The notes beneath the pieces were generated by a model. That model had not been told where the DNA came from and did no database searches. It was given only the letters and a program-made list of their open reading frames with translations. Made by a program: the position numbers and the translations under genes. Source: an uncultured Latescibacterota bacterium (lineage in GTDB: Bacteria; Latescibacterota; UBA2968). Taken from it: 64,000 nucleotides of DNA. This document shows positions 12,563 through 39,449 of this stretch, piece by piece (position 1 is the first letter of the stretch; each line of letters begins with the position of its first letter). The DNA is taken from positions 2,982,522 through 3,046,521 of the forward strand of contig OX638329.1 in assembly GCA_951812755.1 (NCBI GenBank), written 5' to 3'.

Positions 12563-12625
12563 ATCCGCAGAAAAAAACGCGAATAATTTGAGCGTTTTTC
12601 GCAGATGAACGCAGATAAAAAAAGG
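12563..12625. repeat. dispersed intergenic repeat, copy A
   Basis: 'CCGCAGAAAAAAACGCGAATAATTTGAGCGTTTTTCGCAGATGAACGCAGATAAAA' is near-identical to the reverse complement of 33569-33630. Confidence 0.6.
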
Positions 12626-12626
12626 A

Positions 12627-13364
12627 TCAAGCAGATTTGAAAATGCGACGCCACAGGGCGGGATGCTGAGACCGCTGCCAGGTTTTGAGACGCGATTGCC
12701 AGTCGTGTGGGCGTTCGGGCAGGAGGGGGAACCGCTTTTGTATGTATTCTCTCTGCGCTTCGATATCTACTTTGTCAATGGGTGCATAAGCTGGCAAAAG
12801 TGATCGGTTGACGAGTTGCCGCTTTTTGCTGGCTTCGATATTTTCGTGCGCGAGGCGCAGGTTTTCGAGGTAGTGGTATGTCAGGTCTCGCACCCGTGCA
12901 TTGTATTGTTTGCACAATTGGTCGAAGGTCCTGATGGTATCAAGGAGATCAGACGCGGGTGGTGTTTGCGTATTGGGGTGAAAGTCTTCTGGAAGTGCGT
13001 CCAGGCCGAGAGCTTCGCACATCTCTTTGTCATTGGAAAATGTGCGGATGAGTGTTTGCGCGAAGGGGCGAATTGCTTTTTGCAATGGCGCGATTTTTTC
13101 GGTCGCGTGTCGCAGGTGTTCTTCGGATTTTTTGAGGTATTCTTCCGCGTCTTTGCGCTCCTGGAGCTGTGCGGGAAGCACATTGTTGTCACGCAGGATT
13201 TTTCCCGCCATGCGATGTTCCGCATCGGGGCGGAAATACGCTTTTAAGTCGAGTGGCTTGCCTTTGCCGGGAATATCGGTATCGTCCGACACGGCATCGC
13301 GCAGCATTTCATCGGGCGTGCGCCTTTCGGGCTTTCCATCAGGCGTGCGTTTATATGATGGCAT
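12627..13364 (-). CDS. DUF1992-like protein (DnaJC28-like C-terminal domain), tentative
   Basis: 245 aa with 'IPGKGKPLDL' motif recalled for DUF1992. Confidence 0.4.
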   Translation of the reverse strand: MPSYKRTPDGKPERRTPDEMLRDAVSDDTDIPGKGKPLDLKAYFRPDAEHRMAGKILRDNNVLPAQLQERKDAEEYLKKSEEHLRHATEKIAPLQKAIRPFAQTLIRTFSNDKEMCEALGLDALPEDFHPNTQTPPASDLLDTIRTFDQLCKQYNARVRDLTYHYLENLRLAHENIEASKKRQLVNRSLLPAYAPIDKVDIEAQREYIQKRFPLLPERPHDWQSRLKTWQRSQHPALWRRIFKSA

Positions 13365-28249: not shown

Positions 28250-31200
28250 CTACCTCCAGAATTTGGCAATCCTCATTGCTTGGCTGATCATTTCGTCCAT
28301 TTGTTCCGAAGATAAATCAATGCCATGTATGTCTTCCACCACATCGTAGAAGAAATCATCAATCTCGTTTTTTACGACATTTTGCGCGTCGCTATCGTTC
28401 CAAAAATCTACCTTCCAATTCCTTTCTATCGCGGTTTGAATGGCAAGCGTTGTTTTTATTGCTATGCCATCGGTCTGGCTTTCATCGATATCAATTTTTG
28501 AGAAACAGGGTTTAATTGCGCCAAAATATGCACAGGCTTCACGATTATTGCGAATCTCGTCGGGCACATCGTCGCGTTGAGAGCTTTCGACCTTATCGCG
28601 AATATCGCTCACCTTTTGCAGATAATCCAGGGCTAATATCCGTTGCTGCCTGAAATCGTCGATTGCCTCCTGAATGAGCTTTGAGAATTTCTCGTAAAAA
28701 GCAGGGTCTTTGTCCATGTTTTCGGTAATCTTGCGCTTGGTTGCATGCGCGATATGGTCGGCGTTTGCCGCTATATTTCGGGTGCGGTAGATGCCTCGCT
28801 CCTCTTTGACCACAGAAAAGGTGTTGTTATCAAAAATATCCACGGGATCGTTTAATTGGGTGACTTCGTTTGCCTGAATATGCGTGTTTAGCAACTTTTT
28901 AATTCGGGTGTCATAGTCGCCGTAATCAATGGCTTCGGCGTAGCGCAGTCTGACAGCCTGTCTCAGTTTCTCAAAACGCAAGAGATCGCTTTTGTAGCGT
29001 TTGAGTTGGGCCTCGTCGGTCTGCATAATGAACTGCTCAGATGAAAGCGCGATGGCAAGGGTTTTGCCGTATTCCGTGAGGCGTTCATAAAAATCTTCCC
29101 GCAATGCGTCATCGGATAGGAGGACTTCGTAGCGTTCTTCATCGCGGGAATTTTTAATTTCTTTGAATATATCCCAGAGGTCCGAGTAACGTTGCGGCAA
29201 TTTTTGTATTTCTTCCTGGATGGAGACCAGGACATTGGCGAGATCCGCTCTGTCAAAATCCGCAAGCGCGTCGTATTCGTTCAGTGCTTTGTCCAGTTCA
29301 CCCAATACATTGGCATAATCAACGACATAGCCAAATTCCTTATTTTCGTGTACGCGATTAACCCGGGCAATAGCCTGGAGCAATGTGTGTTCGCGCAACT
29401 TACGGCACAGATAGAGCACGGTATTGCGAGGCGCGTCAAATCCGGTGATGAGTTTATCTACTACAATCAAAATTTCCGGATCGTCCGCGTGTTTGAACTG
29501 TGCGATGATTTGTTTGTTGTATTGGTCTTCGGAACCATAACGAGCCATCATTTTGTTCCAGAACGCGTTGACCTCATCTGTTTCTTCGCCTACCTCTTCA
29601 TGCCCCTCTCGCGTATCCGGGGGAGAAATAACGACCTCCGATGAAATATCATTTATCTCATTGAAAAATTCTCGATACTTCAGGGCAGTCGCTTTGTTGG
29701 GTGCTACAAGTTGCGCCTTAAATGGGGTGTTCTGCCAGTTTACGCGGTAGTGTGTGCTTATGTCAAATGCGCGCATATAGACGACCTGGTCTGCCTGATT
29801 GAGTGCATCTGCACGGGAATATTTTCTTTTTAAGTCGGCTTTTTGTTGGTCTGTCAGGTTTACCGTATGGCGTTCGAACCACAAATCAACCGCGTTTTCG
29901 TTTTGCTCTATCTCTACATGCCGTCCTTCGTACAGTAGGGGAACCACTGCCTTGTCTTTGATCGCCTGTCGCACGGAATAGTGCGGTTCAATAAGACCTC
30001 CAAATCTAACAAAACTGTTCTTCTCTCTTTTGAGCAATGGCGTACCTGTGAAGCCGATGTAACAAGCATTGGGTAACATCTGCCTCATGCGCGCTGCGAG
30101 AGAACCGAAGTTTGTGCGGTGGCTTTCATCTACGAGGACGACAATATCCGCTGAATCATCAACGTATTTTTCAGCAGAAAGTGCCGTATCAAATTTATTG
30201 ATCAGCGTCGTGATGATACCCACTTTGTTTTTGATGTGTTTGACCAGATTTCGCCCGGTTGTCGCCCGCTCCATGTCCAGGCCACAGGCTGCGAAGGTGT
30301 TGCCCAGTTGTTTATCCAGGTCTTTGCGGTCTGTAACGAGAATCATTCGGGATTTATTCAGTTCGGAGTTCAGAGCCAGAGTACGCGCGAGCATGACCAT
30401 TGTGATGGATTTCCCAGATCCCTGAGTGTGCCAGACAATGCCGCCCTGGCGGCGTCCTGTCTTGTCTATTTGTTTGATGCGATTTATTGCGGAACGAACG
30501 AGAAAGAACTGCTGGTATCGGGCTATTTTCTTACTGCCAAGGTCAAAGACGATAAAGCCGTAAATGAGTTCCAACAGACGCTCTGGACGGCACAGGCTGT
30601 AAAGACATCTATCCTGTTCCGTGAGCAGTCGGTCTCCTGTGCTTTCAAGCGCGGCGAAGTGCGATAGCGCCAGAGCAAAATCGCCGCGGAATAGGGCGTC
30701 TTTGTCTTCAGCGGAAAGGGTTTTATTGATGCTGGCATTCACTTCGTGAGCAGAATCCTCCATTTCGTCCCATAAGCTCCAGAATGCCTTTGAAGTTCCC
30801 ACCGTTGCGTACTTCGCCTCATTTTTGTTTATAGCCAGCAATATTTGTGCGTAAATGAAAAGGCGCGGGATATATTCTTCGCCCTGATTGCGGATTGTTT
30901 GAGATATGGCCTGCTCAACATCCACATCGGAGCCTTTGCATTCGATTACAACAAGGGGAATACCGTTCACGAATAGTATAATGTCGGGCCTTGCGGTTTC
31001 CAGGCTGCGGGTGCGTTCAACAGAAAATTCCGCTGTGGCGTGAAACACATTGTTCGCGGGATTTTTCCAGTCGATATAGTTCAGGGTATAACTTTTGGAA
31101 TCGCTCTCGATGGTTTGTTCAAGTGATGTGCCAAGCGTTATCAGGTCGTAGATTACTTCATTTGTTTTTTGCAGACCATCGTATTGGATATTTTTGATTT

Positions 31201-31438
31201 TCTGAATGGCAGATTGAATATTCTCCTCGCTGAATAGATACAGACCGCCTTTGTAGTGAATGCGGTTTATTTTTTTAAGCTGATCGCGCAAGATGTTTTC
31301 CAGCAGAACATTTGAGGCACGACCACCGCGTTCTACCATCGCCTGCTCGGGGGGCAGATACCGGTAGCCCATGTTAATTAGCTGTTGCAGGGCAGGTATC
31401 TGGGAGAGGTGTTTTTCGCTGAATGGGAAGGTAGGCAT
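28250..31438 (-). CDS. hsdR: type I restriction endonuclease subunit R
   Basis: 1062 aa; helicase motifs ('HTQGSGKS', 'DESHR') and HsdR-like N-terminal nuclease region. Confidence 0.9.
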   Translation of the reverse strand: MPTFPFSEKHLSQIPALQQLINMGYRYLPPEQAMVERGGRASNVLLENILRDQLKKINRIHYKGGLYLFSEENIQSAIQKIKNIQYDGLQKTNEVIYDLITLGTSLEQTIESDSKSYTLNYIDWKNPANNVFHATAEFSVERTRSLETARPDIILFVNGIPLVVIECKGSDVDVEQAISQTIRNQGEEYIPRLFIYAQILLAINKNEAKYATVGTSKAFWSLWDEMEDSAHEVNASINKTLSAEDKDALFRGDFALALSHFAALESTGDRLLTEQDRCLYSLCRPERLLELIYGFIVFDLGSKKIARYQQFFLVRSAINRIKQIDKTGRRQGGIVWHTQGSGKSITMVMLARTLALNSELNKSRMILVTDRKDLDKQLGNTFAACGLDMERATTGRNLVKHIKNKVGIITTLINKFDTALSAEKYVDDSADIVVLVDESHRTNFGSLAARMRQMLPNACYIGFTGTPLLKREKNSFVRFGGLIEPHYSVRQAIKDKAVVPLLYEGRHVEIEQNENAVDLWFERHTVNLTDQQKADLKRKYSRADALNQADQVVYMRAFDISTHYRVNWQNTPFKAQLVAPNKATALKYREFFNEINDISSEVVISPPDTREGHEEVGEETDEVNAFWNKMMARYGSEDQYNKQIIAQFKHADDPEILIVVDKLITGFDAPRNTVLYLCRKLREHTLLQAIARVNRVHENKEFGYVVDYANVLGELDKALNEYDALADFDRADLANVLVSIQEEIQKLPQRYSDLWDIFKEIKNSRDEERYEVLLSDDALREDFYERLTEYGKTLAIALSSEQFIMQTDEAQLKRYKSDLLRFEKLRQAVRLRYAEAIDYGDYDTRIKKLLNTHIQANEVTQLNDPVDIFDNNTFSVVKEERGIYRTRNIAANADHIAHATKRKITENMDKDPAFYEKFSKLIQEAIDDFRQQRILALDYLQKVSDIRDKVESSQRDDVPDEIRNNREACAYFGAIKPCFSKIDIDESQTDGIAIKTTLAIQTAIERNWKVDFWNDSDAQNVVKNEIDDFFYDVVEDIHGIDLSSEQMDEMISQAMRIAKFWR

Positions 31439-31455
31439 TGCATTGTTCCTGTTTT

Positions 31456-31514
31456 ATCCGCAGATGAATATTATCCGCATATGAACGCAGATATTCGCAG
31501 ATAGAGGCAGATAA
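31456..31514. repeat. cluster of CGCAGAT-type motifs in the hsdR upstream region
   Basis: 'CGCAGAT' at 31459, 31486, 31496 and GGCAGAT at 31506 (10-bp spacing for the last three), CGCATAT at 31476. Confidence 0.4.
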
Positions 31515-32018
31515 AATTCTTGTGAAGCTGGAAGATTACGAGCTTATGACTCTGGTCTCTGATTCATCTCGCTTTGGCTGCATCTCCGTTTTCTTACACG
31601 ACTTCTCAATCATTATCGGTCGCTGGCCTATTGCCTTCTAATTGCTGAAAGCAATTTTTGTTGGGGTTGCATATTTAAGAATGTATGCGAGTTTTCGCAA
31701 ATTTCTGCTTTCCAACTCTTTTTTTGTAAACAGTACAAAAAATACTATAAATTCGTCACAGTCGATATATCCCGTGATTTCTTGACAAGGTAACTGATCC
31801 GAAGTCACTACTCTAATATATGTATTTCTTTTATCGGTTCTTTTAGCAATACTTCGGACAGTTTTTAGGTGTAAAGGTTCTTTGAAATCAACAGGTTAGA
31901 TGAGACCCCATGTTTTATTTACAAGTTAGCCCTATACCCTGAGTTTGATAAAAAAACTGACAATTCTATAAACCGTTGTATTATAGAAACTTAGGGTTTT
32001 TGACTAATTGGAAACCTA

Positions 32019-32129
32019 TCAAAAAGTGTCCGAACCATTGTTGGTGTTCAATCCATTTTTAAATTCCATAAATTCACCAAGCTGAACTTCCCGCCATCCC
32101 TTCGGCAACTGCCCATTTTTCACTGTCAT
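32019..32129 (-). pseudogene. orphan N-terminal fragment of an hsdS specificity-subunit gene
   Basis: 'MTVKNGQLPKGWREVQLGEFMEFKNGLN' matches the conserved HsdS N-terminus, then stop; followed by about 500 bp of AT-rich ORF-free DNA. Confidence 0.4.
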
Positions 32130-32166
32130 TCTATTATCCCCTGTTGAACTGTGCAGTACTTCTGGC

Positions 32167-32388
32167 TCACCAACTCTTTCCTTGCAGTTCCTTCGGGAAG
32201 AGCTTGCGGCTGGAGAGCCGGTCTTCATCTAAAACGTGAATAAGGTATTCGAGAGTTTTCCGCTGTTCGTCAGTATCGCCCTCATCCATCCATGACTGGA
32301 CCAACTGCACAAGACCGGCTGCACGGTCATCAGAAGTTTTGCTTTCACTGACAATCTCGGTAGGATTTTCTGAAAGCCTTTTATCCAT
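32167..32388 (-). CDS. hypothetical small acidic protein
   Basis: 73-aa ORF inside the R-M island; no recognisable motif. Confidence 0.2.
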   Translation of the reverse strand: MDKRLSENPTEIVSESKTSDDRAAGLVQLVQSWMDEGDTDEQRKTLEYLIHVLDEDRLSSRKLFPKELQGKSW

Positions 32389-32427
32389 ATCTCTGTCCTC
32401 TCATCTCATCGCTTTTGCCCTCCTGCT

Positions 32428-32775
32428 TTATGTCTTGACCGCCTGCAATTTCTCTGTTTCAGAAATCTCGCATTGTGGCGCGGGCAGTTGGGTGATGATG
32501 TTCGCAATCAGCGTCTCGTCCTTGTTTGACATGGCATTCGCCACATCTTGAGGATTGCTATGCGTCTTTCGCGCAAATTCTCGCGCACCGCCTTGTCCTT
32601 CAACAGCCGCACTGAATCCGTAATAAAGCGCGGCACCATCCGGATCTTTTTCGTGCTCTTCCAATAAGACTTCAAGGAAGGAGAGAGCTTTATCGATATC
32701 CGAAAACTTTTCGATTAAGTAGTCGCGGAAATCTATCATCTGTCTCATCGTTGGGTCTCCTTGTAATTTTGCCAA
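32428..32775 (-). CDS. addiction-module antidote protein (HTH antitoxin)
   Basis: 115 aa; 'AALYYGFSAAVEGQGGAREFARKTHSNPQDVANAMS' antidote-like; directly downstream of and overlapping the toxin gene. Confidence 0.55.
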   Translation of the reverse strand: MAKLQGDPTMRQMIDFRDYLIEKFSDIDKALSFLEVLLEEHEKDPDGAALYYGFSAAVEGQGGAREFARKTHSNPQDVANAMSNKDETLIANIITQLPAPQCEISETEKLQAVKT

Positions 32776-33080
32776 TAGGTTTTTGCGCGTTCAATGTCTC
32801 GCGTTTGGGAAGACTTATCGCCGCCGCAGAGCAACAGGACGATGGTGTTGCCGACTATACCAAAATAGATGCGATAGCCTGCTCCAAAATGGAAACGGGT
32901 TTCAAAAATACCGTCACCGACAGATTTCCAGTCGCCAAAATTGCCGCCCGCAAGACGACCAAGGCGTGCTTGAATCCGGTCCTGCGTTTTTTGATCGCGT
33001 GACTCAAACCATTCGGTGAAAGGCACTCGCCCATTTGAATGCTGGTAAATTTGCAGTTTTCTCGGTTGCGTAGCAAGCAT
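32745..33080 (-). CDS. RelE/ParE-family toxin (addiction-module killer type)
   Basis: 'FHFGAGYRIYFGIVGNTIVLLLCGGDKSSQTRDIERAK' matches the killer-protein C-terminus. Confidence 0.6.
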   Translation of the reverse strand: MLATQPRKLQIYQHSNGRVPFTEWFESRDQKTQDRIQARLGRLAGGNFGDWKSVGDGIFETRFHFGAGYRIYFGIVGNTIVLLLCGGDKSSQTRDIERAKTYWQNYKETQR

Positions 33081-33116
33081 TCTCTATCTGCCCTTTGCCT
33101 GACTCATGGTGCAATT

Positions 33117-33485
33117 TTAGGTCTCGACTGCCTGCAATTTCTCGGTCTCTGTTTCAGATGTCTCGCATTGCGTCGCGGGCAGTTGGGCGATGATGTTCGC
33201 AATCAGCGTCTCGTCTTTGTTTGACATGGCCTGCGCCACGCCTTGAGGATTGCAATGCGTCTTTCGGGCAAATTCTCGCGCACCGCCCTGTCCTTCAACA
33301 GCCGCACTGAATCCGTAATAAAGCGCGGCACTATTCCCGTCTTTTTGGTATTCTTCCAATTCCGTTTGAAGATAGGAGATGGCCTCCTCAAAGTCAGAAA
33401 GCCCTTCGATTAAGTAGTCGCGATAATTTCTCATTTCTCTCATCGTTAGGTCTCCTTGTAGTTTTACCAATAGGTTTTTGCGCAT
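33117..33485 (-). CDS. addiction-module antidote protein, second paralog (orphan)
   Basis: 122 aa, near-identical core to 32428..32775. Confidence 0.55.
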   Translation of the reverse strand: MRKNLLVKLQGDLTMREMRNYRDYLIEGLSDFEEAISYLQTELEEYQKDGNSAALYYGFSAAVEGQGGAREFARKTHCNPQGVAQAMSNKDETLIANIIAQLPATQCETSETETEKLQAVET

Positions 33486-33551
33486 TCAATGTCCCGTGCC
33501 TGCGAAGATTTGTCGCCGCCGCAGAGCAGGAGGACGATTGTGGCATCTGTA
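33486..33551 (-). pseudogene. 3' remnant of a duplicated RelE/ParE-like toxin gene
   Basis: Encodes only '...TIVLLLCGGDKSSQARDIECAKTYW*'; 5' part replaced by repeat copy B. Confidence 0.45.
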
Positions 33552-33568
33552 AATATCTTTTGATTTAG

Positions 33569-33630
33569 CCTTTCATCTGCGTCTATCTGCGAAAAACGCT
33601 CAAATTATTCGCGTTTTTTTCTGCGGATTC
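33569..33630. repeat. dispersed intergenic repeat, copy B (inverted relative to copy A)
   Basis: Reverse complement nearly identical to 12563-12625; supplies the last codons and stop of the RhuM-like gene. Confidence 0.6.
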
Positions 33631-34658
33631 CGACCCAATTGTCGTTCCAATTCTTTAGTTTCTCTATCAAAATCAGATTCAAACAAACGATCCTGAACAA
33701 TTCGGTATTTCTCAAACTCGCTTTCGGCATGGGCTTTGGCAATCTCGGCACTGACTTGTCCGCTGTCTTTCAATATCTGCCGGTCAAAAGCCTCGAGAAA
33801 TATATCGAGGCGTTTTGCCCAGTCCTCCATTGTCATGGGTATCTTGCGCTGTGCCCGGTCTTCGGCGAGGTCAATATAGGCGTTGACGATACGCCCAAGA
33901 GATTCCAGTTCTTCTTTCGACAGGTAGTTCTTTGCGACAGAGACATCAGACTTCAGGATTTTGCCGGTTGGGGCTTTCTCCCAGGTGGCAAGCCCCATGT
34001 GCCGCTGACCGCTATCTGCCCGCTGTTGTATAAATTCCGCCGTAGTATGGCCGTGAATAGCATAATGCAGTTTGTTTTGCACTCTGGCGAAAAACTCGCG
34101 GGTGGTCGGCGCGTCCCTGTTATAATCCATGCTGGTGGTGTAAATGTCGGCGATCTTTTGGTAAAACCGCCGTTCGCTCAGACGAATCTCGCGGATTTCT
34201 TCCAGCAACCGCTCAAAATAGTCCTCGCCGAGAAACGCGCCATTTTCCAACCGCTGCTTATCCAGAACATAGCCTTTGATCGCAAACTCCCGTAAAACCC
34301 GGGTTGCCCATTGGCGAAATTGCGTGGCGCGTCTGGAGTTTACCCGATAACCGACCGAGATGATGGCGTCCAGATTGTAAAAATTGGTAGTGTAGTTTTT
34401 GCCATCAGCGGCAGTATGTGCAAAACTTGCACATACTGAATCCTGGTCTAACTCGTTGTCATTAAAGATATTTTGCAAGTGCTTTGTAATAACTGAGCGA
34501 TCCACGGAAAATAACTCCGCCATGAGTTTTTGTGTCAGCCAAATGGTGTCGTCCTGGTAACGCACTTCAATACTATCTTCACTGGCCTGGTTGGTAAAGA
34601 TCAAAAATTCCGCTGTGCTGCTGCGGATAGTCAGATCTTTTGAGGATCTCTTGCTCAT
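33600..34658 (-). CDS. RhuM-family (Fic/DOC-related) protein
   Basis: 352 aa; 'DAIISVGYRVNSRRATQFRQWATRVL' is characteristic of RhuM; 4-bp overlap with hsdM. Confidence 0.65.
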   Translation of the reverse strand: MSKRSSKDLTIRSSTAEFLIFTNQASEDSIEVRYQDDTIWLTQKLMAELFSVDRSVITKHLQNIFNDNELDQDSVCASFAHTAADGKNYTTNFYNLDAIISVGYRVNSRRATQFRQWATRVLREFAIKGYVLDKQRLENGAFLGEDYFERLLEEIREIRLSERRFYQKIADIYTTSMDYNRDAPTTREFFARVQNKLHYAIHGHTTAEFIQQRADSGQRHMGLATWEKAPTGKILKSDVSVAKNYLSKEELESLGRIVNAYIDLAEDRAQRKIPMTMEDWAKRLDIFLEAFDRQILKDSGQVSAEIAKAHAESEFEKYRIVQDRLFESDFDRETKELERQLGRNPQKKTRII

Positions 34659-36169
34659 GCTCGTTTTACTCCCTCCATTAATCTCCCTATCTCTCCCCGT
34701 ACTACGATTAACTCCTCTTCCAGTCGGTCTATCTCAAGCTGCACTGCATCAATATCAATCTCCTCTTCTTCTTCAAAGGTATCTACATAGCGAGGAATGT
34801 TTAAATTGAAGTCGTTTTCTTCAATTTCTTCAAAGGTGGCGAGGTGGGCGTATTTGTCTATATCCTGGCGTTTTTTATAAGCGGTGGTGATTTTTTCAAT
34901 GTGCTCGTCCAGCAATGCATTTTGATTTTTCCCGGCCTGATATTCGCGGCTTGCATCAATGAACAAGACATCTTTGCGGTTCTCATTTGCTCCCCCTTGT
35001 TCTCGCGAGCGGTCAAAGACCAAGATGGCGACTGGTATTGAGGTCGTGGGGAACAGATTGCCCGGCAAGCCAATGACGACGTCGAGCAAGTTTTCTTCAA
35101 TGAGTTGCTGGCGAATGCGTCCTTCGGCACCACCCCGGAACAAAACACCGTGAGGGACCACAACAGAAACCCGGCCTTGTTTTTCCAAAGCCGCTTCCAC
35201 CATGTGGCTGATAAACGCATAGTCGCCTTTGGATTTGGGAGGCAAACTGCGCCAGAAGCGGTTGTATATGTCTGCCTCGGCGTCTTCCGCGCCCCACTTG
35301 TTAAGTGAAAACGGGGGATTGGCGACTACATTGTCGAATTTCATCAACCGATCGGATTCCACCAGTGCCGGGGCAGTGAGCGTGTTGCACCATTCAATGC
35401 GGGCTGCATCGGCACCGTTTAGAAACATATTCATACGCGCCAATGCCCAGGTGCTGCCGTTCACTTCCATTCCGTAAAGGGCGTGGTTTTTGTCGCCCAC
35501 TACGCGCGCGGCTTCAATGAGAAGACCAGCGGAACCGCAGGCGGGATCACAGATACGGGCGCCGGGTTTGGGCGCGCACAGTTTTGCCACCAGTTCGGAT
35601 ACCTTGTGTGGCGTGTAGAACTCGCCGGCTTTTTTGCCCGCGTCAGATGCGAAGCGTTCAATCAGGTAGATGTAGGTGTTGCCGATCACATCTTCCGAAA
35701 CCCGTCTGGGACTCATATTCAATTCGGGTTTGTTGAAATCTTCCAGCAGTGTTTTTAGACGGCGGTTGCGGTCTCTGGTCCTGCCGAGACTTGTCTCGCT
35801 GTTGAAATCTATATTTCGGAAAACACCTTCCAATTTCTGTTTGTTTTCCGTTTCAACCGCCTCCAGTGCGATGTTGATGAGTTCACCGATATTGGGAGCA
35901 GAGCGCTGTTCATAAAGGTTGTAAAAACTACTGCCATCCGGCAATACAAAACGCTCATTCCTCAGCCTGCGCCTGATGCGTTCATCGTTATCGCCGTATC
36001 GTTTTTTATATTCCTCGTAGTGGTCCTTCCAGACATCGGAAATGTATTTTAGAAACAGCATTACGAGGATGTAGTCCTTATATCCGGCTGCATCCATCAC
36101 GCCGCGAAAGGTGTCGCAGGCAGCCCAGGCAGCGTTGTTGATGTCTTTTTGTTGGATTTGACTGTTCAT
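34655..36169 (-). CDS. hsdM: type I restriction-modification DNA methyltransferase subunit M
   Basis: 504 aa; 'ICDPACGSAGLLIEA' SAM-binding motif and 'NPPF' catalytic motif. Confidence 0.9.
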   Translation of the reverse strand: MNSQIQQKDINNAAWAACDTFRGVMDAAGYKDYILVMLFLKYISDVWKDHYEEYKKRYGDNDERIRRRLRNERFVLPDGSSFYNLYEQRSAPNIGELINIALEAVETENKQKLEGVFRNIDFNSETSLGRTRDRNRRLKTLLEDFNKPELNMSPRRVSEDVIGNTYIYLIERFASDAGKKAGEFYTPHKVSELVAKLCAPKPGARICDPACGSAGLLIEAARVVGDKNHALYGMEVNGSTWALARMNMFLNGADAARIEWCNTLTAPALVESDRLMKFDNVVANPPFSLNKWGAEDAEADIYNRFWRSLPPKSKGDYAFISHMVEAALEKQGRVSVVVPHGVLFRGGAEGRIRQQLIEENLLDVVIGLPGNLFPTTSIPVAILVFDRSREQGGANENRKDVLFIDASREYQAGKNQNALLDEHIEKITTAYKKRQDIDKYAHLATFEEIEENDFNLNIPRYVDTFEEEEEIDIDAVQLEIDRLEEELIVVRGEIGRLMEGVKRA

Positions 36170-36186
36170 ATTTTGTTACTCCATTA

Positions 36187-36492
36187 TTAACGATCACCAC
36201 AGGGTGGATTATATCGATTCCGCAGTTCTGTCTCGATAATAGTACGGTCATCTGAATTACAGTAATAAGCCGCGTAACTCTGATAGGGATAACCTACCGA
36301 TTTCCAACAGTATTTCCGTTCATGATTTTCTACGCGTTTCTTCACATCCTCCGATTCACCTATATCAACAGGCGTCCAGAGTTGATGTATCGTGCGCCGC
36401 CCTAAAATGGCATACACTCCGGATTCATTTCTAAGATCGGATGTATCATCAAGAGGACCTTCAAAGCTGTAACGTCCTATTCCAATAGTCAT
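36187..36492 (-). CDS. small GIY-YIG-like nuclease-domain protein, tentative
   Basis: 'GVYAILG...VDIGESEDVKKRVENHER...E...N' fits GIY/YIG/R/E/N spacing; start set to internal Met 36492. Confidence 0.35.
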   Translation of the reverse strand: MTIGIGRYSFEGPLDDTSDLRNESGVYAILGRRTIHQLWTPVDIGESEDVKKRVENHERKYCWKSVGYPYQSYAAYYCNSDDRTIIETELRNRYNPPCGDR

Positions 36493-36688
36493 GTCAATAA
36501 CTCCTATTTTATAGGGGTGATTTAAGGATGCGAATAAAGAGTAGAAATCATGGCACAATGACAAACAAAACCTTTCTGGATTGCGGCTAAAAACGTGCCG
36601 CAATGACAGGTGCTATTCCCATCGTCACGCCTGCATGCCTTAAGCAGGCGTCCAGAATAGGGAAGGTGCTCTGAACTCTTTAATGGCA

Positions 36689-37270
36689 TTAAGGTTTTTC
36701 AGATTCATTTAACAATCGCATCTGAATTGTTTTGACCAGTTTTTCCTTTTGCTCTGCCAAATTTTTCATCAGCCTTTGTTCCTTATTTAACAAATCGGCA
36801 AGGGCGACGATTTGTTCTTGTATTTCCAGATTGGGGAGAGGGATTTCCAGAGCATCAAGAGCGGATTTGCCTATCATGGTCATTATCGTTCCGGTCGCCC
36901 TGCTGTGTAAAAATGCTTGTGATGAGGATAGGTTGATACACCAACAAAGATATTCCGGTAGAACATTTTTGCTTGTGACGCGGATCAAGAATAGCGGGGC
37001 CGAGACAACCGTCCGTCCGGGTTCCTTATCAATGATTGTCGCCGTAGTAGTTTTGCCTCGGGAGCGGAAAACCAAATCTTTGCATTCGACCAGATGGCGC
37101 TCATTGATGCCGTTTATATTAATGGTCATTAGGTTGCCATAATCCAATTTATCTTCGATTAGATCGCGCATCTGAATGACAGCCACATTCCCATCTGCTT
37201 CCGGCTCAATACGGGAACGAAAGGAGAGGCCCATCTGAACAAGAGCGATGTCTTTGAGCTTGTATTTCAT
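36689..37270 (-). CDS. hsdS: type I R-M specificity subunit S, short single-TRD form
   Basis: C-terminal 'LPNLEIQEQIVALADLLNKEQRLMKNLAEQKEKL' is the conserved HsdS coiled-coil; about 193 aa from ATG 37270. Confidence 0.75.
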   Translation of the reverse strand: MKYKLKDIALVQMGLSFRSRIEPEADGNVAVIQMRDLIEDKLDYGNLMTININGINERHLVECKDLVFRSRGKTTTATIIDKEPGRTVVSAPLFLIRVTSKNVLPEYLCWCINLSSSQAFLHSRATGTIMTMIGKSALDALEIPLPNLEIQEQIVALADLLNKEQRLMKNLAEQKEKLVKTIQMRLLNESEKP

Positions 37271-37414
37271 AATTACTGGTAAAATATAAAAGTTGCCAGT
37301 TGTGGGAGAAATTATATTACAGAAAAGCCTTTCCTGCAATATAAAGAAAAAAATTCCACTCTGTCAAGTGAAAGTCTTCATTTAGCCGCGAATTGGCGTC
37401 CTGTTCAGATCCCT

Positions 37415-37547
37415 CGCCTTCATCTGCGTCTATCTGCGTTCAGGCTCAAATGAACTGCTGTCACAGTTGTAAACAGCTCACTCGCCTTCATTCTGTGGAC
37501 CCTTTGGGTTTTGCCTTTCATCTGCGCCCATCTGCGAAAAACGCTCA
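37415..37547. repeat. degenerate CGCAGAT-motif repeats plus left half of repeat copy C
   Basis: 'CATCTGCGTCTATCTGCG' at 37421-37438 and 'CATCTGCGCCCATCTGCGAAAAACGCTCA' at 37519-37547. Confidence 0.5.
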
Positions 37548-37735
37548 GAGACTGTTTTAAAACTCATTTTGCCCCTTCTCAGCTATGCGCTATTGCACTG
37601 TCATTCTGAGCGGAGCGCAGCGGAGTCGAAGAATCTCTTGCCAACTCAGGTGGAAAAGATGCTTCGGCTACGCTCAGCATGACAAAACGCCGAACATCCG
37701 TAGCATCAGGTATTAATTTTAAAACAGCTTCTCAG
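37548..37735. mobile_element. MITE-like insertion (~185 bp) splitting repeat copy C
   Basis: Imperfect terminal inverted repeats GAGACTGTTTTAAAA / TTTTAAAACAGCTTCTC; flanking CTCAGA on both sides; internal palindrome GTCATTCTGAGCG / CGCTCAGCATGAC. Confidence 0.35.
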
Positions 37736-37760
37736 ATTATTCGCGTTTTTTTCTGCGGAT
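37734..37760. repeat. right half of repeat copy C
   Basis: 'CAGATTATTCGCGTTTTTTTCTGCGGAT' contributes '...IRRKKRE*' and the stop of the sulfatase gene. Confidence 0.5.
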
Positions 37761-39449
37761 CAGCATCACGCGCCGCACATCCATTACCTGTGAATTGGAT
37801 ACGTCAAGGGCGCGCAAGGTCAGGGTTCCTCTACCCGCGTTTAGCTGGATTGTTCCCAGTGTCAATGGCTCGAAATCCTTTACATAAGACTCGCCTCCAC
37901 GCGGATAGCGGTCATCCGCTGCGCCGATTTGTGGTGGGTCGTGTGCGTCGGTTACCTGTCCTTGCACTTTTGTTGCTTGACCTTGCGCGGGGTGAAATGC
38001 CAACTCGACGGTTGATCCCACATCTTCTTCTGGGCAGGTATAATAAACCGCCGCTTCATAATCGCCCGTTGTGCCGACCTCAATATCCCAGGTCATCCGA
38101 TCACCAACTTGTGTCCAGTGCGTAAAATAAGAACAGTTGGGCGCGCCGGCACTGCGCTGGACTGTGCCGTGATGCACCCCGTCTCGTGCGGGCAAGCGAG
38201 TCGTTTTCCAGTAGCCTGTGGCAAAGGGACGGTCGTCGTTGACGGGCAAGACTTCGGCGTGGAATTTTGCTGTTGCATCTGATAATTCCGCATGGACATC
38301 AGGGTATTCTTGCGATACATCTGTTGTCTGTCCACCATCGGCGCCCATATCGTATAACTTGCCCTCTATGTCCAATCGGAATCGCTGATTGCGCGCGCTC
38401 AATTGCGCCCGCTGATGTGACAAGATGATGCGGTCAGACCATTCGACATCTTCGCCCAATAGCAGGGGTTTGAGGCTGCGACCATCCAGCGGCTTTTCAA
38501 CTTTCAGGTCGATATCCGCAAGGTCGGCAAATGTGGGCAATAAATCAATCGCTCCGGCGATTTCTTCAATGACTGTACCAGCCTGGATATGCCCTTTCCA
38601 GCGCATCAAGCCCGCCACGCGCACGCCGCCTTCATCTGTTGATCCTTTTGTGCCTTTCATCCCGCCATTCCAGCGCGCGCCATTGGGACCATTATCTCCA
38701 AAATAAAATACAATGGTATCTTCCGCGATTTCCAACTCATCGAGTTTGTCCAGCAATCGCCCCACGTTCCAATCGATATTTTCGCATAGAGCCAGTGCCG
38801 CCCGCGTGCGTTCTATCTCTTCTTGATTGGGGTTGGTCGCCAGCATCTCAATCGGTTTATCGCGGAATGGATCGTAAAATCGGTCGGGCACCTGAAATGG
38901 GGTGTGCGGGATATTGTAGGGAAGATAACAGAAGAACGGTTGATCCCGTTCGACATTTGCCGCCATAAAATCCATGGCGCGATCTGTACACTCATCGGGT
39001 AAGTATCCCTTTCCTCGCGTGAGTTCGCCATTGTGTTCGAGTTCGGCATCGAAATATTGCCCCCAGTGTCCGGAACAGAACCCAAAAAACTCGTCAAATC
39101 CCCGCGCGTTCGGATGATAGGGATGCTGCGTGCCATTGTGCCACTTGCCATAAGCTCCCGTGGCGTATCCGGCGGCTTTGAACACATCGGCAATGGTTGT
39201 TTCATCGAGGTTCAGTCGTTCGGCGCCGGTGCTTACGCCGTGGACACCGCCGCGCAGATGATAGCGACCCGTCAAAAACTCTGCCCGCGTGGGCGCGCAT
39301 ACCGGGCAGACGTAAAACCGGTCGAATAGGGCGCCATCTCGTGCGAGAGAATCCACATTGGGTGTGTTGAGATTTGTATTGCCGTGTACACTCAAATCGC
39401 CCCAACCCTGATCGTCGGTCAAGATCACGAGAATATTTGGTCTGGTCAT
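37737..39449 (-). CDS. sulfatase
   Basis: '[15 protein letters not shown]' formylglycine motif; 'LTDDQGWGD' N-terminus; ~150-aa C-terminal extension. Confidence 0.85.

Follow-up and report, generated by a model that had tools for sequence, protein, structure and literature searches.

In REPIN-RAYT systems, REP doublets are served by a single-copy Y1/HUH transposase (PMC3116915, PMC3337134). The repeat described here, ATC(CGCAGAT-NNN)n, five copies or partial copies of which lie within the 64-kb stretch of DNA that was analysed (the window), resembles that arrangement in several respects: short extragenic repeats are scattered through the genome, the putative mobile unit pairs two inverted copies across a short spacer, and the gene that goes with it lies between inverted repeats and keeps one stable context in a system inherited by lineage. 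It differs from it in the parts of which it is made, a phased direct array of heptamers standing in place of a GTAG-headed imperfect palindrome and a putative ~130-aa PD-(D/E)XK (Cas4/RecB-like) nuclease in place of an HUH tyrosine transposase, and in that the same heptamer is common to several phyla. Among the features by which REPs are recognised, neither the imperfect palindrome of 20-40 nt headed by GTAG (the repeats are direct and lack GTAG) nor a Y1 (HUH) gene was found. As for the inverted doublets of REPINs, 57 of the 131 metagenome arrays listed have an inverted partner, while the window copies are single. REPIN-RAYT would still be the closest working analogy, although its defining features are absent here.

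IS elements and MITEs share with the present case terminal inverted repeats around one small gene (seen here in gene cassettes and hairpin elements), gene-less versions of 60-190 bp that are little more than two ends, nested insertions and copies placed between genes. However, no DDE, HUH, serine or tyrosine transposase and no consistent target-site duplication are found here, and the ends are built of 2-4 repeated heptamers. In Tn7 (the TnsB sites) and Mu (L1-L3 and R1-R3) several subterminal sites of ~22 bp are bound by a separate DDE transposase, and TnsA is a PD-(D/E)XK nuclease that acts in transposition. The likeness lies in repeated binding sites (here putative) that are inverted at both ends, and in the fact that a nuclease of restriction-enzyme fold can take part in transposition, but no second protein is encoded in the cassette considered here. 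BIME and BOX are mosaic intergenic repeats of modular build; here too the unit count is variable, and arrays, hairpin module and small palindromes are joined together or set inside one another, but the sequences are unrelated and the associated gene is a different one. Iterons and OmpR/PhoB operators likewise consist of direct repeats spaced by one turn of the helix, in which the core is conserved and the spacer free. In contrast to these, there is no nearby rep gene or origin and no common regulon, and the present repeats are scattered over gene ends and occur as inverted pairs that enclose a nuclease gene.

The overall explanation proposed here, to which a probability of about 0.6 is given, is that the repeats descend, without the gene, from the arrays at the two ends of a compact nuclease cassette of the GxxExxY family. 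The case is one of dispersed non-autonomous repeats tied to one enzyme gene, and of cross-phylum repeats linked to a large orphan nuclease family.

The repeat in the window and at gene ends

The copies in the window, with the features nested in them or adjoining them, are as follows:

12563..12616, + strand: copy A, hairpin-bearing array (nhmmer 69.8 bits)
12630..12636, + strand: degenerate trailing unit AGCAGAT, 3' of copy A
31456..31512, + strand: array without hairpin, five units
33575..33628, - strand: copy B, hairpin-bearing array (nhmmer 68.6 bits)
37422..37499, - strand: copy D, diverged long-loop form
37500..37519, - strand: cassette leader remnant GAAAGGCAAAACCCAAAGGG, matching intact cassettes in loci L024 and L168
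37520..37547, - strand: downstream half of copy C, right hairpin arm and CGCAGAT-GGG-CGCAGAT
37548..37730, no strand given: insert of 183 bp nested in the hairpin loop of copy C
37731..37760, - strand: upstream half of copy C, ATC, unit 1 and left hairpin arm

Copy A consists of ATC, a first unit CGCAGA (12566-12571), a 28-nt hairpin module AAAAAACGCGAATAATTTGAGCGTTTTT (12572-12599) and CGCAGAT units at 12600-12606 and 12610-12616. Copies A and B, which the first-pass annotation had described as near-identical and inverted, are indeed 93% complementary over 61 nt, and the third copy that it had seen as split by an insert is copy C, the halves of which (91% identical to copy A at 37520-37547 and 97% at 37731-37760) enclose the 183 bp. 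The partial clusters that it had listed exist as well. The one at 31456-31512 reads ATC-CGCAGAT, ATC-CGCATAT, CGCAGAT, CGCAGAT and GGCAGAT and is directed towards copy B. The other, given as a motif cluster at 37421-37438, is present at 37422-37438 but is more than a cluster, being part of a full diverged fourth copy. This copy D comprises, in order, TCCACAGA, ATGAAGGCGAGT (the remnant of a cassette start codon, MKAS), an inserted small palindrome (TACAACTG..CAGTTCA), ATTTGAGCC and CGCAGAT-AGA-CGCAGAT. The counterpart of the leader remnant at 37500-37519 is, in L024 and L168, the stretch between the upstream array and the GxxExxY start codon. The 183-bp insert of copy C has inverted ends of its own (GAGACTGTTTTAAAA / TTTTAAAACAGCTTCTC) and a palindrome in its interior (GTCATTCTGAGCGGAGCGCAGCGGAGTCGAAGAATC ... 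GCTTCGGCTACGCTCAGCATGAC). It was found once only, with no second copy in the rest of the window or in the loci retrieved.

The window contains 25 occurrences of CGCAGAT, a number that none of 100 shuffles reached (expected 11.6 +/- 3.6). The 10-bp phasing claimed for the units is exact inside the elements, and arrays of at least two CGCNGAT units with this period, following ATC or GGAAC, are found at 12600-12616, 31459-31512, 33575-33591, 37422-37438 and 37520-37536. The window copies are single arrays in direct orientation without inverted pairing, and the sole converging pair in the window is that of 31456-31512 and 33575-33628, 2.1 kb apart.

Some of these copies form the ends of genes, as had been proposed from the first inspection. 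Copy B contributes nine final codons and a TGA stop to the RhuM-like gene (33600-34658, ending ...NPQKKTRII), and the upstream half of copy C contributes seven final codons and a TAA stop to the sulfatase gene (37737-39449, ending ...IRRKKRE); the repeat is translated in a different frame in each of the two tails. In addition, the gene at 12627-13364 (- strand) ends in ...FKSA on the degenerate unit at 12630-12636, the reverse complement of which encodes its final ..SA residues. Copies had also been placed just before the starts of the ABC exporter gene and hsdR, and this is where they are: copy A sits 88 nt upstream of the exporter start, and 18 nt separate the end of the 31456-31512 array from the start codon of hsdR downstream.

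The stops arise where the final T of a unit is followed by a spacer GAA, AGA or AAA, giving TGA, TAG or TAA, and since the 10-nt period shifts the frame from unit to unit, an ORF entering an array soon terminates. Only about half of the spacers are stop-forming, GGA and GGG also being common, so the stops are taken to be incidental. For the same reason a three-frame stop cassette under selection was rejected, and we read the stop codons as a by-product of insertion into last codons, with no selected function. Sulfatase orthologues end in ...VMLIRR or ...IRRKKRE where an array abuts the gene, and in ...VMLTLKE in L168, where none does. The outcome that the first-pass annotation had named as speaking against its claim, a repeat with no further copies in the genome and orthologues with identical C-termini lacking it, is the reverse of what was found: the family is dispersed, with many further copies beyond the window, and the sulfatase of L168 ends differently without the abutting repeat. 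For gene annotation it follows that C-terminal tails such as ...IRR and ...IRRKKRE before the stop, and N-termini such as MNAD..., are derived from the element and not from the host gene.

Arrays and GxxExxY genes across phyla

The basic element is the array ATC(CGCAGAT-NNN)n, and the hairpin is a secondary nested module, itself open to further inserts, because three orthologous comparisons differ only by the presence or absence of this module: copy C against L020 and L025, copy B against L024 (where the orthologous site holds a three-unit array without hairpin) and L181 against L180. In the 54-nt form of the element the 28-nt hairpin module replaces 4 nt (TGAA or TGGA) between units 1 and 2. 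This gives a layout of ATC-CGCAGA, then AAAAAACGCGARTAATTTGAGCGTTTTT, then CGCAGAT-NNN-CGCAGAT, with a sharp left edge and a number of trailing 10-bp units that varies from 2 to at least 8, while arrays without hairpin read ATC(CGCAGAT-NNN)n-GAAAGGC. Further inserts found in the hairpin module are the TACAACTG..CAGTTCA palindrome and the 183-bp insert of copy C.

A scan for the hairpin-bearing form with GCGTTTTTCGCAGATNNNCGCAGAT as the query, in one genome per species, gave 38 genome matches, all of them in Candidatus Latescibacterota MAGs of at least 13 species, where about 0.07 matches would be expected by chance (our own arithmetic). Three of the matched Latescibacterota loci align with the window at 82-95% identity over 32-40.8 kb, which places the window in this phylum. 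Between species, orthologous copies of the 54-nt element share 98-100% of their sequence, against 67-85% for the 60 nt of intergenic DNA that follow, and the differences within the element fall in the 3-nt spacers. The combination of invariant heptamers with variable 3-nt spacers would be the signature of a protein recognition site. A metagenome scan with three bare units returned at least 120 loci, with a contig GC of 35-68% among the matches listed and a typical form ..GGAAC(CGCAGAT-NNN)3, loop, (NNN-ATCTGCG)3GTTCC. The inverted array lies within 120 nt downstream in the 57 of 131 listed arrays mentioned above, and upstream in only 8. The matches listed also provided 44 hairpin-like elements with inter-arm loops of 3-138 nt, and no consistent target-site duplication was found around these 44. 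The repeats account for short phased repeats in the intergenic DNA of many uncultured phyla, and such phased repeats give rise to small ORFs that are spurious and change the ends of genes.

In Latescibacterota, 49 of 58 copies have CGCAGAT on whichever strand is locally richer in G. Where GC skew and gene direction conflict, the orientation of the element follows the skew, and with orthologous duplicates removed and an absolute skew > 0.1 the bias amounts to roughly 27 to 2 (hand count). Among single arrays outside Latescibacterota the bias was not significant (24 to 15).

When the ORFs within 1.5 kb of the metagenome arrays were clustered, one family recurred in four loci and no other in more than two. 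Its members are ~130-150 aa long and match PF13366 (PDDEXK_3) and TIGR04256 ('GxxExxY protein') with E 1e-35 to 1e-43. An order of upstream array, 0-120 nt, GxxExxY gene and inverted array at or overlapping the stop is found in L024, L025, L042, L055, L088, L105 and L135, and L077 shows the same converging arrangement around a fragment of the gene. The array-associated proteins share a pairwise identity of only 32-56%, and a profile search returned at least 7,999 homologues at E<=1e-10. In the reverse test, where the proteins were top matches of a profile built from array-carrying members of PF13366, eight independent GxxExxY proteins were located by exact-sequence look-up, and phased arrays adjoin all 8 ORFs as judged by eye. 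Five more distant homologues from IMG/VR are also flanked by arrays by eye, L188 only weakly, and in L193 the arrays at the gene are arranged atypically. A mechanical detector of converging phased repeats was positive for 11 of 17 GxxExxY ORFs and for 3 of 824 other ORFs (Fisher 1e-18), and a stricter version for 8 of 17 and 3 of 824; two of the three positive control ORFs are rhuM genes beside a cassette. The array and the GxxExxY gene occur together across many phyla. This provides a concrete, testable DNA partner for the very large family TIGR04256/PF13366, to which no function is assigned.

The motif of the arrays varies by lineage, with heptamers CGCCGAT, CGCGGAT, CACAGAT, CGCAAAT and CACGGAT and, at a 9-bp period, CGGAAT, CACGAAA and CGCGAAA. 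Arrays of 9-bp period built of CGCAGATTA or CGCAGATGA units were observed in L025 (7039-7081) and L197 (1195-1225 and 1650-1680). Since 9-bp arrays are present, also at distant homologues, the phasing of the family is 9-10 bp and not strictly 10. Identical GxxExxY proteins always have one genomic context each (8 looked up) and thus show no sign of recent jumping.

Invariant in the GxxExxY alignment are E41, D81, E91-x-K93 and Q105-x-x-x-Y109, residues which we take to be the RecB/Cas4-type active site of the PD-(D/E)XK superfamily, and from its sequence the protein is predicted to be a small nuclease with a minimal Cas4/RecB-type PD-(D/E)XK fold. Searches by sequence found no solved structure for it, no match to the defence and phage families of PADLOC and PHROG and none to transposase families, PF13366 alone being encoded in the cassette. 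In a survey that includes the family, its function is entered as 'Unknown' and multiple transfers between divisions are recorded (PMC3424549). Literature searches, which covered few subscription journals so that an earlier description is possible, found none of the arrays or of their link to GxxExxY, and nothing relevant on PDDEXK together with inverted repeats.

The 64-kb window itself contains no GxxExxY gene by tblastn, and a GxxExxY protein acting on its copies would have to be encoded elsewhere in the genome. At sites orthologous to those of the window, the gene is found between converging arrays in L024, L025, L168, L180 and L181. The hsdM and rhuM genes overlap at their junction in the window and in L020, while in L024, L025 and L180 the junction carries an insertion of 629-644 bp with the GxxExxY gene, bounded by inverted three-unit arrays. 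An intact cassette lies 3' of the sulfatase gene in L168, and another, in L181, has the hairpin-bearing form as its upstream end. Moreover, positions 37460-37519 of the window (- strand) keep the cassette leader and start codon (GAAAGGCAAAACCCAAAGGG..ATGAAGGCGAGT), the window's GAAAGGCAAAACCCAAAGGGTCCACAGAATGAAGGCGAGT being nearly identical to the pre-gene GAAAGGCAAAATCAAAAGGATTCACTAATGAAGGCGAGT of L024. With intact cassettes at orthologous sites and a retained leader and start codon, it is very probable that the window copies are gene-less derivatives of the terminal arrays of the cassette. As a candidate target-site duplication, the single comparison of an empty with a filled site shows only a diverged 10-11-bp repeat, AATRRARGGG, which also precedes arrays inside the insertion.

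In L159-L167 (P0054) and L173-L178 (P0094), cassettes were also observed between consecutive same-strand genes, for example between two MacB/FtsX-type permease genes and between an MMPL transporter gene and a DUF1329 gene. Several gene calls there have a GxxExxY ORF overlapping the end or start of its neighbour.

Proposed mechanism and competing explanations

The cassette consists of an upstream array of two to four heptamers (CGCNGAT) at 10 bp, the ~130-aa GxxExxY gene and the same array inverted, and measures about 450-650 bp in total. In the mechanism proposed for these repeats, the phased heptamers may act as a multi-site platform for several GxxExxY protomers on one helix face, and the inverted arrays may mark two ends that the protein cuts, upon which the cassette and its gene-less derivatives would be copied or moved. 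These derivatives, array-loop-inverted-array hairpins and single arrays, would be non-autonomous, and copies would be tolerated only between genes or in the last few codons, where a TGA, TAA or TAG of the array ends the frame. Binding and mobilisation of the arrays by the GxxExxY protein are given somewhat less than even odds. The larger proposal, in which GxxExxY proteins would be the enzymes of unrecognised selfish elements of ~0.45-0.65 kb that extend across phyla, with ends that are bound and cut and with REPIN-like gene-less forms, is offered more tentatively still. The lack of a consistent target duplication, the hydrolytic nature of the nuclease, the single genomic contexts and the single-array copies of the window count against a full transposon model, and since rejoining DNA is beyond a PD-(D/E)XK hydrolase on its own, a complete chemistry of transposition cannot be put forward. 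Should CGCNGAT arrays indeed be recognised by the nuclease, repeat and enzyme would form a REPIN-RAYT-like partnership on a different catalytic fold, and GxxExxY would also be a very small sequence-directed nuclease.

The arrays might instead act as RNA, the upstream and downstream arrays pairing in the transcript into a stem around the nuclease ORF that would serve as an RNase III processing site, hide the start codon or stabilise the 3' end, with single copies at gene ends acting as 3' stabilisers or terminators for host genes. This would suit arrays that are tight against the ORF and often contain its ATG and stop, cassettes that are located inside operons and the position of most Latescibacterota copies 3' of a same-strand gene. 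The folding of both strands, a check put forward in the first-pass annotation, gave a weak result in the same direction, one strand of the hairpin form folding somewhat better than shuffled sequence (z -2.3 and -1.9). However, invariant heptamers with free spacers are unnecessary for a stem. The two arms agree in their heptamers, but their spacers are complementary at only about 52%, the mismatches show no G.U excess and no covariation between the arms is seen at the heptamer's variable fourth base, all of which points more to duplex DNA as the recognised form than to a stem of RNA. The hairpin contains just 3 G-C pairs, has a loop of 11 nt and was not flagged by a terminator scan, copies lie in every orientation relative to genes, and there is no Rfam match (Rfam 15 at gathering score matched only three tRNAs in the window). 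A role as RNA is thus considered unlikely. An intrinsic terminator was rejected on account of the same short stem and loop, its absence from terminator-like sites and the weak folding z-scores, as were CsrA or Hfq-type RNA motifs, for which the spacers are too variable.

Ranked after an RNA role, and improbable as well, is the idea that the arrays are passive DNA without a dedicated enzyme, growing by slippage and spread and homogenised by gene conversion, so that the near-identity of copies would be concerted evolution and the GxxExxY link old shared ancestry. Unit numbers that vary from 2 to at least 8, with identical spacers throughout in L013, L022 and L025, would accord with it, as would the presence or absence of the hairpin module at the same position in three orthologous comparisons with a flanking homology of 9-17 bp, and the finding that non-orthologous copies are as alike as orthologous ones. 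Passive growth and conversion nevertheless leave unexplained why, in many phyla, new sites should arise beside genes that are unrelated, why converging arrays should frame one gene family in a fixed layout and why the nuclease active site is intact in thousands of homologues.

The least likely of the three is that the arrays are sites for a host DNA-binding protein, such as an OmpR/PhoB-type response regulator or a nucleoid or replication-linked protein, and that GxxExxY genes merely prefer to insert there. In line with such a protein are the direct repeats with their 10-bp phasing, conserved core and free spacer, the conservation of elements at orthologous sites and the location of arrays just upstream of hsdR, hsdS and the ABC exporter gene, and the Latescibacterota strand bias (49/58 on the G-rich strand) also speaks for it, although outside Latescibacterota that bias is not significant (24 to 15). 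The motif, however, changes with the GxxExxY lineage and not with host phylum alone, the same heptamer at 35-68% GC implies a recogniser that travels with the arrays, and the neighbouring genes have no common function.

The first-pass annotation had likened the units to iterons or regulator sites. The part of this that stands is the signature of a protein site, with fixed heptamers and free spacers; a role as plasmid-type iterons or as operators of neighbouring genes does not, because the copies lie beside unrelated genes in every orientation. What the copies have in common would be descent from the inverted terminal arrays of GxxExxY-nuclease cassettes, and the cognate DNA-binding protein that had been suggested as a search target would most likely be the GxxExxY protein, encoded outside the window, none having been found within it. 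Among more remote candidates, DnaA boxes were rejected (TTATCCGCA at 31454-31462 and 31471-31479 resembles TTATCCACA, but the motif is dispersed, the other units misfit and it travels with the nuclease gene), as were plasmid iterons or an origin (the flanks are an ABC exporter, a type I restriction-modification system and a sulfatase, and the repeats are dispersed over many loci) and integron attC sites (there are no R''/R' cores, RYYYAAC / GTTRRRY, and no integrase among the Pfam-scanned ORFs of the window).

Other intergenic modules and the surrounding locus

The loops of other hairpins can carry a small palindromic module (..GAGCGGTG TACAACTG GCC-loop-GGC CAGTTCA..) as an insert. This module was seen in the window at 37440-37475 and in L002, L007, L012, L016, L017, L019, L020, L027, L033 and L035, its hosts being the array hairpin and hairpins of the GTAGGGGCG type, and one pair of its stem changes on both sides together, from GCC/GGC to GTC/GAC. 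REP-like hairpins starting with GTAGGGGCG often lie just downstream of elements (L002, L006, L009, L011, L013, L026, L034, L036 and L038); this motif has 28 occurrences in L001-L038 and 0 in the window. The tandem heptamers GAAGTGT, CTGACTA, GGGCTGG and GAAAGGC are common in the same intergenic regions.

GC skew in the window reaches 0.29 per 2 kb, a very high value, whatever the direction of the genes. Its sign is reversed locally over about 32-46 kb, a span that takes in the block of restriction-modification and sulfatase genes, and the orientations of the arrays switch at the same boundary. This local reversal may be due to an inversion or to DNA that was acquired.

The type I restriction-modification locus of the window (28250-37339) is a patchwork in which hsdS is split (36187-36603 and 36689-37339) and rhuM and toxin-antitoxin genes are located between hsdM and hsdR. 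Among the relatives compared (L180, L181, L197 and L198), gene content switches exactly at arrays. In L025 and L181 rhuM is lost and GxxExxY gained, and an unrelated lineage has the order hsdM-GxxExxY-DnaJ-hsdS. Within the window, positions 32428-33485 hold tandem diverged gene copies of 115 and 122 aa, which form a 300-nt direct repeat of 84% identity with a Gp49/HigB-like toxin gene (32745-33080) between them, and this block is enclosed by the converging arrays at 31456-31512 and 33575-33628.
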